This document shows, one piece after another, positions 347 to 5,788 of a DNA stretch of 64,000 nucleotides. A program made the position numbers and the translations under genes. Origin of the DNA: Escherichia phage vB_EcoM-pEK20; sequence record MZ868638.1. One strand, given 5' to 3'. Within the stretch, counting starts at the first letter, position 1, and each line of letters starts with the position of its first letter. Below the pieces are notes generated by a model. That model saw only the letters and a list, made by a program, of their open reading frames with translations. It made no database searches and had not been told where the DNA came from.

Positions 347-373
347 ACATTCATCAACTACTTGGAGGAAATT

Positions 374-787
374 ATGACTCGTATCAATTTAACACTTGTT
401 TCTGAACTGGCCGACCAACATCTTATGGCTGAGTATCGTGAATTACCACGCGTATTTGGTGCAGTCCGTAAACATGTTCAAAACGGTAAACGTGTAAAGG
501 ATTTTAAAATCTCTCCAACATTTATCTTAGGCACAGGTCACGTAACATTCTTTTACGACAAACTCGAATTTTTACGTTTACGCCAAATCGAGCTAATCGC
601 TGAATGCTTGAAACGTGGTTTCAAAATCAAGGACACGACTGTCCAGGATATTTCCGACATCCCTGCCGAATTTCGTAATAATTATGTCCCGTCCGAAGCG
701 TCCATTGCGATAAGTCAAGCACGCTTAGATGAAAAAATTGCTCAACGTCCGACTTGGTACAAATACTATGGTAAATCAATTTACTAA
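374..787 (+). CDS. denV: Endonuclease V, pyrimidine-dimer DNA glycosylase / AP lyase
   Basis: Protein [35 protein letters not shown]... is near-identical to T4 DenV as recalled; start at internal ATG 374 of ORF 362-787. Confidence 0.95.
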
Positions 788-1314: not shown

Positions 1315-1617
1315 ATGAAAACATATCAAGAATTTATTACTGAAGCGCGAGTGAGTGCAGGTAAATTAGAAGCCGCTATAAATAAAAAGGCCCATTCATT
1401 TCATGATTTGTCCGATAAAGACCGTAAGAAACTTGTAAGCCTTTATATTGACAAAGAGCGTATTCTCGCTCTTCCTGGCGCTAATGAAGGTAAACAGGCC
1501 AAGCCTTTGAATGCCGTCGAAAAGAAAATTGATAACTTTGCTTCTAAATTCGGTATGTCTATGGATGACCTTCAGCAAGCGGCTATCGAAGCAGCTAAAG
1601 TAATTAAAGGTAAATAA
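1315..1617 (+). CDS. Internal protein (T4 IP family), CTS MKTYQEFITE
   Basis: 100 aa; N-terminus and body resemble T4 internal protein sequences as recalled. Confidence 0.55.
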   Translation: MKTYQEFITEARVSAGKLEAAINKKAHSFHDLSDKDRKKLVSLYIDKERILALPGANEGKQAKPLNAVEKKIDNFASKFGMSMDDLQQAAIEAAKVIKGK

Positions 1618-1649: not shown

Positions 1650-1674
1650 ATTCATAATTACTTGGATGGGTAAA

Positions 1675-1804
1675 ATGACTTATATTAATTTGACTTTAGT
1701 ATCTAAATTTGCTGATCAACATTTAATCGCCGAATACTGTGAATTGCCACGTGTTTTTTGGTATAATTCGTAAACACGTGGCAAAAATATTTACATTCAA
1801 ATAA
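1675..1804 (+). pseudogene. denV-like 5' remnant (N-terminal ~43 codons, frameshifted)
   Basis: [28 protein letters not shown] matches DenV residues 1-28; a T7 run at 1754-1759 shifts frame, +1 frame continues FGIIRKHV (DenV FGAVRKHV) then stops at 1802-1804. Confidence 0.6.
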
Positions 1805-1946
1805 AATGGGAACAACCTGGACCTCATGATTCTATGAGGGATTCCCGCCAACCTGTAATAAGGTCGAGCCCAAGTGCGGTAATGGGTAAATACAGAAATG
1901 GACAATTCATGCGCCACGGAACGGCCCCAACCTTAAGAGAAACTAA

Positions 1947-2486
1947 ATGAGAACATTTTTAACCGGACCTTATCTATCCCTGATGAATGCTTTTACACAC
2001 CATTCTGATGCTAGAGTAGAAGAAATTTGTAAGAACGGTTATGCCCCACCATTTGAAGACGTACTCAAGCAGTACTGTACACTTCGTTTAGACGGTGGCA
2101 GACAATCCGGTAAATCAATTGCTGTGACTAATTTTGCTGCTAATTGGTTGTATGATGGCGGAACGGTTATTGTTCTTTCTAATACTTCAGCTTATGCTAA
2201 AATTTCTGCTGGCAACATTGAAAAAGAATTTTCTCGTTATTCTAGCGACGATATTCGATTCCGTTTATTTACTGATTCTGTTCGTAGTTTTATTGGTAAT
2301 GAAGGACATAAATTCCGTGGATTAACACTTTCTCGTATTCTGTACATAATTGACGAGCCTATTAAAGCTCCTGATATGGATAAGATTTACGACATCCATA
2401 TTAAAACAGTCCAACACTGTTGCAAAAGCAAATATTGCATCGGCGGTAATGCTCGTCCTCAATTTTTTGTGATTGGAATGCAATGA
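1947..2486 (+). CDS. Small P-loop NTPase (Walker A GGRQSGKS, Walker B ILYIIDEP)
   Basis: Motifs read from translation; family not assignable by eye. Confidence 0.4.
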   Translation: MRTFLTGPYLSLMNAFTHHSDARVEEICKNGYAPPFEDVLKQYCTLRLDGGRQSGKSIAVTNFAANWLYDGGTVIVLSNTSAYAKISAGNIEKEFSRYSSDDIRFRLFTDSVRSFIGNEGHKFRGLTLSRILYIIDEPIKAPDMDKIYDIHIKTVQHCCKSKYCIGGNARPQFFVIGMQ

Positions 2487-2791
2487 TGACCGCTATTGAA
2501 GTTTTTGAGTACTGTTATAACAGCCCAGTATGCAATAAAAGGGCCCTTGTAGAAAATTATGAGATTTACCATTTTAAACCTAAACGATACCGTTTGACTA
2601 AAGGTCCGTTCGCAGGGCAGCAGGTTCTTTGTACTGCTCCTAATGCACGGTTGATGACTAGTATTCCACATTTCAAAATGGAATTTATTGATGGGCCATT
2701 TAAAGGATTAATCACTCAAAGTTTAATGGCGTTTAATTCCGACCCATTTTTGATTAAAGAAAAAACTTGGATAAATTTATTTTCTAATTGA
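2483..2791 (+). CDS. Hypothetical protein, start overlaps stop of upstream NTPase (ATGA)
   Basis: ORF with overlapping start/stop suggesting translational coupling. Confidence 0.3.
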   Translation: MMTAIEVFEYCYNSPVCNKRALVENYEIYHFKPKRYRLTKGPFAGQQVLCTAPNARLMTSIPHFKMEFIDGPFKGLITQSLMAFNSDPFLIKEKTWINLFSN

Positions 2792-2797
2792 GGTTAT

Positions 2798-3160
2798 ATG
2801 AAAGCATATCAAATTCTTGAAGGTGAACATAAAGGCACTATTTATTTTGAAGACGGTACTCAAGCCCGGATTATTGTCTCTAAGACTTTTAAAGAAGACA
2901 CTATTGTAGACCCGGAAATTTTCTACGGTTTGAATGCTCGTGAAATTGAAATTGAACATCAACCTAAAGTTAAAATTGAAGGTGGTCAACACCTGAACGT
3001 TAACGTTCTGCGTCGCGAAACTCTGGAAGATGCAGTTAAGCATCCAGAAAAATATCCGCAGCTGACCATCCGTGTATCCGGTTATGCAGTTCGCTTTAAC
3101 TCTCTGACTCCGGAACAGCAGCGCGACGTTATCGCTCGTACCTTTACCGAGAGTCTATAA
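2798..3160 (+). CDS. Autonomous glycyl radical cofactor (GrcA/YfiD-like)
   Basis: C-terminal ~58 aa [59 protein letters not shown] matches E. coli GrcA as recalled, including the glycyl-radical motif RVSGY. Confidence 0.85.
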
Positions 3161-3384
3161 TGGCTAAATTGATTATAGAAGGGTCTGAAGATGTTTTAAA
3201 ATGTTTTGCCGCCTGGTTTAGTTGCCCAGGCGAGCAATCATTCATTGAAGCATTTAGAACGGGTGATATTACTGGAAACTATCCGACAACTGATATCACT
3301 GTACGTGGATATGGTATTAATGAGCCTATCCAATTGGTCGAATATGACCTTGCCACCGATGAGGAAATTCCTTATGTCGATTGA
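3160..3384 (+). CDS. Hypothetical protein
   Basis: ORF only. Confidence 0.3.
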   Translation: MAKLIIEGSEDVLKCFAAWFSCPGEQSFIEAFRTGDITGNYPTTDITVRGYGINEPIQLVEYDLATDEEIPYVD

Positions 3385-3619
3385 AGACATCAAAGGCTAC
3401 AAGCCGCATACCGATGATAAAATCGGTAAAGTGAACGCTATTAAAGATGCCGAAGTTCGTTTAGGACTTATTCTAGACGCCCTGGCAGAAGAAGCATTAT
3501 CAGCAAATACTCCTGAAGCTCTGACGGCTTTGTCCCAATTGAACTGTGCTAAAGAACGCCTAAAGGAAGCTAGTATGTGGGCTTGTCGTGCGGTATTTCA
3601 ACCAGAGGAAAAATACTAA
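3374..3619 (+). CDS. Hypothetical protein
   Basis: Internal ATG of ORF 3206-3619, overlaps upstream stop. Confidence 0.3.
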
Positions 3620-3918
3620 TGGCTCAAATCCTATCAGGCTTTGGAACTCATTATGAAGCATCTCGACGCATAACTGAAAGCAATCCTTTTGGCCTTGTTC
3701 CGAAGCACAAGAAAATTCAAAGCCTTGATGACTTTGAGAATCGCCTATGGGCCCTCTTTAATGAGTACAAGGCATATCTGAAAGAAGACGCTGACGATTG
3801 TCTTGAAGAAGATGAGATTGCGTATTACGAACAACGCCTTGAACAGCTCAAGAACTTCCACCAGGTTCGTGACGAAGTATCTAAAGCAGTTAAAAAGTTA
3901 ATTCCTTTCAAAGAGTAG
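3619..3918 (+). CDS. Hypothetical protein
   Basis: ATG 3619 overlapping upstream stop (TAATG). Confidence 0.3.
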
Positions 3919-3974: not shown

Positions 3975-4433
3975 ATGACTATCAATTCAGACGTTTTTAT
4001 CCGCCGCAATAAACTCCGTCGAATCTTTGAAACGGAGTTCCGCAAAATAAATGCCAGTATAAAAGATGCTGCAAAGTCTCTTGGACTACCGGGCTTTCAT
4101 ATCAAGTATTCTCAACATCTCTTAGATCGTGCCATCCAGAGAGAAATAGATGAGAATTACGTTTTTGAATTATTTCATAAAGTAAAAAATCATGTTAAAG
4201 AAGTTGCAGAATTTTTATCAATGCCGGCACGTCCAGATGTTGATGAAGATTTTGTCGAAGGTGTCGAATATCGCCCAGGCCGTTTAGAAATAACTGATGG
4301 AAATCTTTGGTTAGGACTTACAGTTTGTCGCGAAAATCCAGCATTCAAAATGAAGACTCTTCAATGCAGAATGGCTATTATTAACAATAAACGACTACCA
4401 GGAAAAGCTTCTAAAGCAGTGATTAAAATCTAG
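3975..4433 (+). CDS. regB: RegB-like sequence-specific endoribonuclease
   Basis: 152 aa; resembles T4 RegB as recalled and lies between denV and tk. Confidence 0.55.
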   Translation: MTINSDVFIRRNKLRRIFETEFRKINASIKDAAKSLGLPGFHIKYSQHLLDRAIQREIDENYVFELFHKVKNHVKEVAEFLSMPARPDVDEDFVEGVEYRPGRLEITDGNLWLGLTVCRENPAFKMKTLQCRMAIINNKRLPGKASKAVIKI

Positions 4434-4441
4434 AGGTAAAC

Positions 4442-4984
4442 ATGAGAAAAGCACTACTCGCTGGTCTATTTGCTCTTTCATTATCAGCACATAGCTCCGA
4501 GCATACTTTTAGTAATGTCCAACTCGATAACTTGAATTATGCTTATCAGTTTGGGGAACAGTTTTCTAAGGATGGAAAATTTAAAACGCATGAAAATATG
4601 CATAAGAAAGGACTTGGATACATAATGGCCGCAATACTATGGCAGGAATCATCTGCCGGTATTAATCTTAAAGATAAGAAAGGTCACCATGCGTATGGAA
4701 TGTTCCAAAATTATCTACCAACAATGAGGGCAAGAATTAACCAACTTGGTTATAATATGACTGATGCCCAAATTAAGAAAATGCTATCTAAGCGGTCTAA
4801 TTCAGCCAGATGGGCTTATATAGAATTTTCTTATTGGTTAAATATACATAACGGGGATATAAGGAAAGCCTTATCCTCATATAATGCGGGATGGAAGACA
4901 AGTGCTGGAAGTAAATATGCTTCTGAAGTCCTAGAAAAGGCTAATTACCTTAAATCAAATAAACTACTGGAAATAAAAGAATGA
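4442..4984 (+). CDS. Periplasmic lytic transglycosylase-like protein with signal peptide
   Basis: Signal peptide MRKALLAGLFALSLSA; Slt-type motifs E-S-S (WQESSAG), GMFQ and YNAGW. Confidence 0.5.
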   Translation: MRKALLAGLFALSLSAHSSEHTFSNVQLDNLNYAYQFGEQFSKDGKFKTHENMHKKGLGYIMAAILWQESSAGINLKDKKGHHAYGMFQNYLPTMRARINQLGYNMTDAQIKKMLSKRSNSARWAYIEFSYWLNIHNGDIRKALSSYNAGWKTSAGSKYASEVLEKANYLKSNKLLEIKE

Positions 4985-5328
4985 CCAAAATGTTGGCTTT
5001 AATAGTTGGCTTGGTTTCATTTAACGCTCTTGCTAATACTACATATACTGATGTAACGGAGTATACAAACAGAACGGCGTCTGATTATTGTGGTAAAAGT
5101 CAAGAGTGTAAAGTAGATTTTTCACAAAAATTGTTATATGCGTATAAAGACGGAGAAAAAGACGGGGCGTCTAGTAGGTTCAAGGCGTCTACTTTAATTA
5201 AAAGATACTATAAAAAATGGCAAATATTAGAATGCTCGGTGGCGGAACCTAAAGATAAGGCGGCATGCAATTCTATGGTGGACCGTCTAGTTGACTCTTA
5301 TACTAGAGGACTTGTAGCAAGTGATTAA
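4981..5328 (+). CDS. Secreted small protein (signal peptide, Cys-containing)
   Basis: N-terminal hydrophobic signal MTKMLALIVGLVSFNALA. Confidence 0.35.
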   Translation: MTKMLALIVGLVSFNALANTTYTDVTEYTNRTASDYCGKSQECKVDFSQKLLYAYKDGEKDGASSRFKASTLIKRYYKKWQILECSVAEPKDKAACNSMVDRLVDSYTRGLVASD

Positions 5329-5788
5329 AAACTATATCAAGGGCGATATTGTCGCCCTGTTTTCTAAAGGTAATAATATTGCTCATGGGTGCAATTGTTT
5401 TCATACAATGGGCGCCGGTGTAGCAGGTCAATTGGCAAAGGCTTATCCAAAAATTTTAGAAGCCGATAAACTTCAAACCGAATTCGGAGATGAGTCTAAA
5501 CTCGGGACTTATTCGGTTTATGAAAAATATTTTAAGACCCATAAAGCTTATTGCTTTAATCTTTATACACAGTTTGAGCCGGGACCTAATTTTGAGTACT
5601 ATGCTTTAATGAATTGTATAATAGAATTAAATGAATTCGGAAAAAATAAGATAACAAAGCCTGTAATTTATATGCCAAGAATTGGTGCAGGTATAGGTGG
5701 TGGAAACTGGGATATCATTGAAGAAATTCTTGATACATATTCCACTAAACTAGAAATTGTGATTGTTGATTGGGAACCATTATTATGA
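5321..5788 (+). CDS. Macro-domain protein (ADP-ribose binding / hydrolase family)
   Basis: GDIVALFSKGNNIAHGCNCFHTMGAGVAGQL and PRIGAGIGGGNW resemble macro-domain motifs; GTG start. Confidence 0.5.
   Translation: MIKNYIKGDIVALFSKGNNIAHGCNCFHTMGAGVAGQLAKAYPKILEADKLQTEFGDESKLGTYSVYEKYFKTHKAYCFNLYTQFEPGPNFEYYALMNCIIELNEFGKNKITKPVIYMPRIGAGIGGGNWDIIEEILDTYSTKLEIVIVDWEPLL

Follow-up and report, generated by a model that had tools for sequence, protein, structure and literature searches.

The vs.8 and vs.7 genes of a T4-like Escherichia phage: a putative stand-alone relative of the terminase ATPase core, its optional neighbour and a conserved structured RNA upstream

The stretch analysed here comprises 64,000 nucleotides (nt) of Escherichia phage vB_EcoM-pEK20 (sequence record MZ868638.1) and is referred to as the window. 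Positions 1947-2791 carry two overlapping genes which, judged by homology and gene order, are vs.8 and vs.7 of phage T4, the first cistrons of a co-directional early cluster that runs from vs.8 to vs.3. Profile searches show the product of vs.8 to be a free-standing paralogue of part of gp17, the large terminase of the T4 type, namely of its RecA-like ATPase core. It is like the nucleotide-binding heart of a terminase, yet it is not a terminase and cannot be the packaging enzyme. Directly upstream of vs.8 lies a structured RNA, the chief novelty of this region. The genes themselves are known, and it has already been published that vs.8 is an ATPase of terminase-like character.

Identity and distribution of vs.8 and vs.7

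The 1.6 kb around the two genes shares 96.8% DNA identity with Escherichia phage vB_EcoM_JS09 (Mosigvirus, Tevenvirinae), and the window is of the Mosigvirus type, that is, from a JS09/RB69-like relative of T4. A megablast search with this region gave matches in 887 phage records. In the JS09 record the equivalent genes are noted as vs.8 and vs.7, followed by vs.6, vs.5, vs.4, vs.3 and regB, and the gene order of T4 is identical (denV, vs.8, vs.7, vs.6, vs.5, vs.4, vs.3, regB). The first protein matched the profile of the T4 Vs.8 family (phrog_1488, 2.1e-78, residues 3-179) and the second that of the T4 Vs.7 family (phrog_2049, 1.4e-48). Pfam and NCBIfam searches assigned no family to either of them; homologues of vs.7 carry a precomputed PF26834.1 label, and PF26834 gave no match for vs.7 of the window in the Pfam search.

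In a tblastn search, 1,009 phage records matched vs.8 and 1,007 of them contained it once and complete; vs.7 was found in 933 records. In JS09 and T4, vs.8 lies between denV and regB in the early region. All carriers of the two genes are T4-like phages of enterobacteria, and the position of vs.8 downstream of denV or of ip genes is kept in 35 viral loci. The original prediction, made from the sequence alone, had described a 179-amino-acid protein with the motifs GGRQSGKS and ILYIIDEP in the variable region after denV. The open reading frame, its motifs and its setting in a plastic early region behind denV are all as described there (Table 1). The partner gene and the role of the pair had been called unknown; the genes are vs.8 and vs.7 of T4 and occur in about 1,000 sequenced phages.

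In some GenBank records vs.8 and vs.7 bear the label 'endoribonuclease RegB'. We rejected this label as annotation spill-over, the real RegB gene being located further downstream at 3975-4433. The propagated mis-annotation covers vs.8, vs.7 and vs.1, e.g. in MN850590 (L002) with the proteins P0003, P0006 and P0028.

vs.8 as a small P-loop NTPase

The vs.8 protein possesses the typical elements of an ASCE nucleoside triphosphatase (NTPase): a Walker A motif of the form GxxxxGK[ST] (G50-GRQS-G55-K56-S57) and a Walker B motif followed by the catalytic glutamate (I131-LYII-D136-E137). In an alignment of 19 homologues, with identity down to 37%, the residues D49-GGRQSGK56, R113, R124-G125, E137-P138, G177 and Q179 were invariant, and D136 was invariant save for one conservative D-to-E change. 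A profile search of 1.84 billion representatives yielded 57 clusters at E<=1e-3, nearly all of them 140-190 amino acids in length; the patterns GxRQxGK[ST] and h4[DE][ED] were kept in all 33 tabulated clusters (E<=1e-10), with two exceptions. The predicted structure is a RecA-like alpha/beta P-loop core with a parallel sheet and the P-loop between a strand and a helix. It finishes after the strand 172-176, only the three residues G-M-Q lying beyond this last strand. It had originally been conceded that the motifs might be chance matches in a fold of another kind. The conservation of the catalytic residues down to 37% identity and in the wider family, together with the predicted fold, indicates that they are not, and that vs.8 is a genuine small NTPase with Walker A and B motifs. 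Such a protein would bind Mg-ATP and would probably hydrolyse ATP as a small oligomer.

A sister clade, made up of roughly twelve distant clusters (E 4e-8 to 1e-3), has the Walker lysine changed to histidine (R-x-S-G-H-S/T) and has lost both the catalytic glutamate and the terminal GxQ. These proteins (P0059, P0063, P0065, P0067, P0068, P0071 and P0074-P0079) may be pseudo-ATPases. Since the Walker lysine and the catalytic glutamate are missing there, at least one branch of the wider vs.8 family would need no canonical hydrolysis.

Relationship of vs.8 to the large terminase

The protein had been considered too short for a terminase. This statement obscures a homology to the ATPase core of that enzyme, of which early hints were weak (Pfam Terminase_6N, E 0.047; phrog_2, TerL, 1.9e-4). 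Searches of the PDB with the single vs.8 sequence and with a narrow profile gave only non-significant matches, none of them to a terminase. Likewise, a BLASTP comparison of vs.8 with gp17 of the same phage was not significant, and hhalign of a shallow vs.8 profile against gp17 reported a probability of only 14.6%. The relationship became significant only once distant members of the vs.8 family had been added to the profile, which then comprised 59 sequences. With this profile three T4 gp17 entries came out on top of the PDB search (9.3e-7, 4.8e-6 and 1.2e-5), the TerL of P74-26 was found at 3.9e-3 and the best helicase reached 2e-3, as against 9e-7 for gp17. When the vs.8 family was compared with gp17 of JS09 (L038), hhalign gave a probability of 93.8% (E 1.7e-7) over 92 columns.

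The aligned pairs are GRQSGKS with SRQLGKT, FRG with VRG and IIDE with YIDE. Likeness to the ATPase of gp17-type TerL (PDB 2O0H, 3CPE, 3EZK) thus extends over the RecA-like ASCE core, the Arg-Gln of the Walker A motif, the R-G that precedes the strand of Walker B, and this latter motif itself with its catalytic glutamate. The invariant R52 of vs.8 aligns with R162 within SRQLGKT of gp17. A cis-acting arginine in the P-loop is typical of large terminases, and in the motors of D6E and phi29 the trans finger is formed by an arginine located between alpha3 and beta4 (PMC5727402). According to the alignment, R52 and R124 of vs.8 occupy these cis and trans arginine positions of large terminases.

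Other parts of a terminase are not found in vs.8. The columns aligned with the adenine-binding motif of gp17 (Y142-Q143; about residues 35-37 of vs.8) are variable. The lid or N-subdomain II and the coupling motif have no counterpart in a protein that finishes three residues past its last strand; where gp17 has the TTT of motif III, vs.8 has the terminal G-M-Q. There is no RNase H-like nuclease domain and no portal-binding domain either, gp17 being 610 amino acids long and vs.8 only 179 (family range 140-190). In other words, because vs.8 stops right after the fifth strand it is without Q motif, lid, nuclease and portal-docking part, and should be unable to cut or package DNA. Its location is also different. 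Large terminase genes lie in a late module with the small terminase and portal genes, gp17 adjoining gene 16; the true gp16 and gp17 of JS09 lie ~36 kb away, adjoining gp18-gp20 in the late region, whereas vs.8 belongs to the early region.

Among other known systems, the Avs2 activators Ksap1 and Ksap2 come close to vs.8. They too are small, lineage-restricted phage proteins with a terminase-ATPase-like sheet which are predicted, like vs.8, to fill the sensor pocket of Avs2, but sequence homology to terminase and intact Walker motifs are reported for vs.8 alone (PMC13601566). In comparison with the RecA1 domain of superfamily 2 helicases (DEAD-box proteins and others), vs.8 lacks the second RecA domain and the Q, Ia, Ib and SAT motifs, and its sequence profiles point to terminase rather than to helicases. 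The nucleotide sponges Acb2 (Vs.4) and TadIV-1 (Vs.3) resemble vs.8 in being small, early and products of one and the same run of co-directional genes. They differ in having other folds and in binding signalling nucleotides, while vs.8 has an ATPase fold and is inactive on type IV Thoeris.

vs.7 and the question of a two-gene module

The model of vs.7 consists of two N-terminal helices and a small SH3-like beta-barrel. The conserved core of the protein (about residues 34-88, GPF...G...S..D) coincides with the predicted barrel, which spans residues 34-88 and can be superposed on domains of the SH3-like and Spt5 KOW kinds. An SH3-like or KOW fold is the candidate assignment for vs.7. There is in addition a weak resemblance to the SH3 inserts of the helicases Dda, RecD and Pif1. 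Profile comparison and structure prediction, proposed as a check when the pair was first described, have thus given a RecA-like core with gp17 ATPase homology for vs.8, and helices with an SH3-like barrel for vs.7.

As originally described, the stop codon of vs.8 (TGA, 2484-2486) overlaps the start codon of vs.7 (ATG, 2483-2485) in the sequence ATGA. The junction GGAATGCAATGATGA is conserved across loci. Of 38 loci, 35 have a vs.8 stop codon that shares nucleotides with the start of the following gene, 25 times as ATGA and 10 times as TAATG. Translational coupling of vs.8 and vs.7 is likely from the sequence. It might be thought that this points to a dedicated two-gene module, as had been proposed. 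However, the ATGA overlap is weak evidence for such a module, such overlaps being routine in this genome: in the corresponding region of JS09, 11 of 26 adjacent gene pairs have overlapping junctions, six of them by 4 nt. Moreover, vs.7 is the usual neighbour after vs.8, but in three loci (L017, L036 and L037) vs.8 is coupled in the same manner to a vs.5-like gene and vs.7 is missing. The pairwise divergences of the two proteins are uncorrelated (Spearman 0.12, 32 loci). In L010 and L024 an identical vs.7 stands beside vs.8 proteins that are only 43% identical to each other; between T4-type and JS09-type phages vs.8 is 91% identical and the adjoining vs.7 68%. A co-adapted complex of the two proteins is not supported, and vs.7 is an optional accessory or adaptor rather than an obligate subunit. 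Obligate co-occurrence, co-evolution and single-gene toxicity, by which toxin-antitoxin pairs are recognised, were not found for vs.8 and vs.7.

A conserved structured RNA upstream of vs.8

During the search for a promoter we noticed that the DNA of the ~150 nt preceding vs.8 is conserved even in loci whose proteins are only ~40% identical; about 85-115 nt of it make up the structured RNA. The conserved stretch has a core of 31 nt (1852-1882) which is nearly invariant among T4-like copies. A strict pattern for this core has one match in the window and is present in 36 of 38 loci and in 35 viral contigs; one copy of the element stands upstream of vs.8 in 36 of 38 loci. A 1-nt deletion in the core was found in L016, L031 and L034, and two or three positions differ in L066 and in phage Ivi.

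The stems around the core change in sequence and retain pairing (coordinates in Table 1). P2, which closes the core, has the lineage variants CCC/GGG, CUGG/CCAG, CGCG/CGCG and UACGCG/UGCGUG, and in P3 an A-U pair is swapped for G-C between lineages. Among 30 distinct sequences, 88.4% of the cells of P2 and P3 were paired as compared with 78.0±1.7 in shuffles, and the covariation score was 0.318 as compared with 0.110; neither value was reached in any of 500 shuffles. One of these pairs occurs as five pair types with no exception. RNAalifold, applied to the B and C types, predicted P1 as a long hairpin with a covarying C-G/A-U pair, and P0 as a long-range helix with at least a dozen sequence variants, among them CGC/GCG, ACCA/UGGU, CUCGA/UCGAG and CACAC/GUGUG. 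The pairing of each P0 flank with its own partner was matched by none of 20,000 partner permutations. From these alignments the covariation of the four helices P0-P3 is clear.

Several less specific approaches were uninformative. Minimum free energy z-scores of the T4-like copies were not significant, RNAalifold on a mixed MAFFT alignment of the element returned 9 pairs only, and an all-against-all column scan for covariation was too noisy. Rfam 15 gave no relevant match for the window (E<=10) or for L066, L010, L017, L033 and L194 (E<=1). A tRNA scan of the element was negative, and nothing similar was found in E. coli genomes. The element shares with known cis-regulatory and small RNAs such as riboswitch aptamers, small ribozymes and processed small RNAs a multi-helix junction, a conserved unpaired core and variable covarying stems, but no Rfam 15 family matches any of its lineages.

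Two copies stand outside the T4-like phages. One is located on a lambdoid-like IMG/VR contig (L066, 1800-1965, minus strand), where the core with its own P0, P1 and P2 lies downstream of an endolysin gene and is followed by an intrinsic terminator; its fold z-score is -2.07. The other, in the Kagunavirus-like phage Ivi (L194, 2490-2690, plus strand), likewise has its own P0, P1 and P2; it too follows an endolysin gene and lies between two terminators. A metagenome scan added one partial Ivi-like copy, and a loose pattern run over genome contigs gave chance matches only. Judged by these surroundings, the element looks like a stand-alone small RNA in L066 and Ivi and like a 5' leader in the T4-like phages. 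Within the latter, L011 (3874-3928) and L023 (3881-3934) possess an additional copy in tandem, which has diverged and scores 45 and 32 bits, respectively, with model R1. In L020-L022 and L030 the full element (about 3470-3600) precedes an ip-like gene ~500 nt upstream of vs.8, and only the 3' hairpin is repeated before vs.8. The element behaves as a gene-leader cassette that can be moved. For the vs.8 transcript it may have a controlling or stabilising function.

An upstream open reading frame of 38 codons runs through the element. The T4 RefSeq record counts the equivalent stretch (NC_000866, 64793-64912; L197, 4294-4413, minus strand) as part of vs.8, as an extension at the N-terminus that gives a protein of 219 amino acids. 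We rejected a protein-coding nature of the element on either strand after comparing the reading frames. The coding interpretation fails because many lineages lack a start codon although the frame of the core is open everywhere, because three lineages carry a 1-nt deletion, and because the reading frame of the conserved 3' block differs from type to type; downstream, the open reading frame also varies in length and frame between lineages. The family-wide start of vs.8 is M-R/K-T-F-L-T, and for this reason the T4 extension is probably an over-extended call.

Surroundings of the element and the vs cluster

The features of the region are listed in Table 1. The RNA is preceded by an internally deleted remnant of denV, ~0.9 kb after the intact gene and downstream of two internal-protein genes. 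The location of the remnant after these two genes suggests that the ip cassette was inserted by recombination. The Ip10-like and IpII-like proteins share an N-terminus of the capsid-targeting type, MKTY(K/Q)EFI(A/T)E. Within the remnant there is a perfect 13-bp inverted repeat (1745-1757/1772-1784), and its loop contains an extended -10-like sequence, TGGTATAAT (1759-1767), which arose through changes relative to intact denV and is a possible candidate for an extended -10 promoter. A consensus scan for sigma-70 promoters and terminators performed no better than on shuffled sequences, and no MotA box was found upstream of vs.8.

Table 1. Sequence features in the vs.8-vs.7 region of the window
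Feature	Position	Strand	Basis or remark
denV, intact	362-787		Pfam Pyr_excise 7e-14
Ip10-like and IpII-like internal-head-protein-like genes	974-1288, 1315-1617		between denV and its remnant
denV remnant, internally deleted	1666-1803	+	JS09 annotates the equivalent open reading frame as a denV fragment
Conserved structured non-coding RNA, directly 5' of vs.8	1815-1927	+	covariation; no Rfam match
RNA helix P0	1817-1819/1893-1895	+	covariation
RNA helix P1	1822-1827/1834-1839	+	covariation
RNA helix P2	1844-1847/1883-1886	+	covariation
RNA helix P3	1851-1854/1861-1864	+	covariation
RNA small hairpin	1868-1869/1876-1877	+
RNA 3' hairpin	1913-1915/1923-1925	+
38-codon upstream open reading frame	1834-1950	+	TGA overlaps ATG of vs.8; probably not conserved coding
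vs.8 orthologue	1947-2486	+	179 amino acids; predicted stand-alone P-loop ATPase
Walker A/P-loop GGRQSGKS, residues 50-57	2094-2117	+	invariant in the alignment of 19 homologues
R124-G125, then Walker B ILYIIDEP (residues 131-138, nt 2337-2360) with catalytic E137	2316-2360	+	conservation and gp17 alignment
C-terminal G-M-Q and stop, ATGA overlap with vs.7	2475-2486	+	G177 and Q179 invariant
vs.7 orthologue	2483-2791	+	102 amino acids
vs.6, GrcA-like glycyl-radical protein	2798-3160	+	Pfam Gly_radical 2e-18
vs.5	3160-3384	+	co-directional vs cluster
vs.4, Acb2 homologue	3374-3619	+	Pfam Acb2_Tad1_hairpin 4.9e-18
vs.3, TadIV-1 homologue	3619-3918	+	59% identity with T4 Vs.3, E 1e-37; long form
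RegB proper	3975-4433		Pfam REGB_T4 1e-69

The remainder of the vs cluster, vs.6 to vs.3, occupies 2798-3918 on the same strand, and the homologues of Acb2 and TadIV-1, both characterised sponges with proven anti-defence activity, follow three and four genes after vs.7. Acb2 is Vs.4 of T4, and vs.6 corresponds to the Y06I protein of T4, which rescues oxygen-damaged pyruvate formate-lyase. Beyond regB, vs.1 (4442-4984) has a signal-peptide-like N-terminus and a weak match to SLT lytic transglycosylases (1.3e-3), and a tk.4-like gene (5321-5788) encodes a Macro domain protein (2.3e-6).

Possible roles of vs.8 and vs.7

T4 vs.8 was picked up in an AlphaFold 3 screen against EcAvs2, published in Nature Communications in August 2026, where it was termed an 'uncharacterized ATPase-like protein' homologous to the terminase ATPase and containing Walker A and B motifs (PMC13601566). 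It was toxic if expressed together with the terminase sensor EcAvs2, with an interface predicted template modelling (ipTM) score of 0.84 from AlphaFold 3; the authors leave its function open and suggest that activators of this kind might be anti-defence proteins (PMC13601566). Other work identified T4 Vs.3 as TadIV-1, which serves as a sponge against type IV Thoeris. There the vs.8-to-vs.3 fragment of T4 could be cloned with its own promoter, and uninfected E. coli was made to express Vs.3-Vs.8 individually from 'the promoter of vs.8' (PMC13243611).

We tentatively suggest, with somewhat less than even confidence, that vs.8 has been selected as a look-alike of terminase, for use in the conflict between phage and defence. 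The protein would be made early, before the real terminase, and would display an ATP-loaded, terminase-like face. It might thereby engage, titrate or mistime host proteins that watch for terminase, and EcAvs2 would be a sensor that turns the mimicry against the phage. vs.7 would contribute a small SH3-like protein, translated in coupling with vs.8 by way of the ATGA overlap, and the structured RNA would act as the 5' leader of vs.8. A part in host takeover or anti-defence had also been the original prediction for the pair. The idea is plausible but unproven: the homologues of Acb2 and TadIV-1 in the cluster and the toxicity with EcAvs2 make it reasonable (PMC13601566).

A number of observations weigh against the look-alike. 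The sole functional datum is that vs.8 activates EcAvs2 and does not block it, which is bad for the phage. Among Vs.3-Vs.8 expressed singly only Vs.3 blocked type IV Thoeris (PMC13243611). The strict conservation of the catalytic glutamate and of the finger arginine seems to exceed what a passive decoy needs and points to real turnover. In phage T2, vs.8 is found by tblastn as three pieces (NC_054931.1, 61767-62299) and BFVD holds a 57-amino-acid T2 fragment, so the gene may be disrupted there; because of this fragmentation it would be dispensable at least in T2. The uncorrelated divergence of vs.8 and vs.7 and the three loci without vs.7 belong here as well. Finally, guilt by association in an accessory region of a phage genome is weak evidence.

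The turnover suggested by these conserved residues leads to another explanation, namely that vs.8 is a plain enzyme: a small ring-forming ATPase derived from a terminase- or helicase-like motor, which acts early in takeover on a nucleic acid or a protein of host or phage. vs.7 would then be an SH3/KOW-like adaptor binding nucleic acid or protein, and recognition by Avs2 an accident of ancestry. This is the main rival of the look-alike, and we hold it to be somewhat less likely. In its favour, neither the lysine of Walker A nor the catalytic glutamate ever varies, and the Walker B aspartate varies by D/E only; the arginines of the P-loop and of the finger position are invariant as well. The fold of vs.8 matches the RecA1 domains of helicases as well as terminases, and the model of vs.7 is like SH3-like and KOW domains and, weakly, like the SH3 inserts of Dda, RecD and Pif1. 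In addition, an isolated terminase ATPase domain can far outpace the full-length enzyme (7.8 to 458 per min for D6E; PMC5727402). On the other hand, a lone RecA-like domain with neither lid, second domain nor obvious DNA-binding surface has no known route to translocation, vs.7 can be absent and is freely reassorted against vs.8 by recombination, and the neighbouring genes suggest no substrate.

It is quite improbable that vs.8 tunes the packaging of its own phage by forming mixed oligomers with gp17 or by competing for gp16, thus delaying the terminase. vs.8 is homologous to exactly that part of gp17 which oligomerises and carries the finger arginine, and it is restricted to phages with T4-type terminases. 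However, it is early and far from the late genes 16 and 17, it is dispensable in some phages, and it is only remotely similar to gp17 of its own phage; conservation of an interface between the two is doubtful because neither BLASTP nor the narrow-profile hhalign comparison detected a significant relationship.

A small ATPase with a small partner is the architecture of some toxin-antitoxin and abortive-infection modules, and together with the stop/start overlap and the conserved gene order this might suggest a toxin-antidote-like or selfish pair, in which a toxic ATPase is neutralised by its coupled partner. We regard this as very improbable, since three loci have vs.8 but no vs.7 beside it, co-evolution of the two genes is lacking, and overlapping junctions are commonplace in the genome. 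In addition, the T4 fragment from vs.8 to vs.3 could be cloned and its genes could be expressed one by one, which implies that vs.8 by itself is not toxic (PMC13243611).

Implications

For the STAND/Avs and Upx sensors of bacteria, terminase is one of the main molecular patterns that give tailed phages away. A trimmed, early copy of the terminase ATPase beside two sponge genes bears on the question of whether phages mimic a protein of their own so as to blunt or mistime pattern recognition. Our analysis adds residues for mutation (K56, E137, R52 and R124), the optional SH3-like vs.7 and a catalytically stripped sister clade to what has been described for vs.8.

A more far-reaching reading, which as a whole we think unlikely, would combine the look-alike with the RNA. 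The element at ~1815-1927 would represent a new class of structured phage RNA, with a P0/P1/P2 junction round a near-invariant core of 31 nt that moves between unrelated phage families, and it would head the anti-defence cluster as a sensing leader, a self-processing RNA or a decoy RNA; vs.8 would be a purpose-built terminase mimic used early. If this were true, an RNA device would stand in one cluster with a mimic made of protein and a pair of nucleotide sponges. The RNA element, conserved far beyond the flanking proteins and common to unrelated phages, is a candidate for a new RNA function in the long-studied T-even phages.

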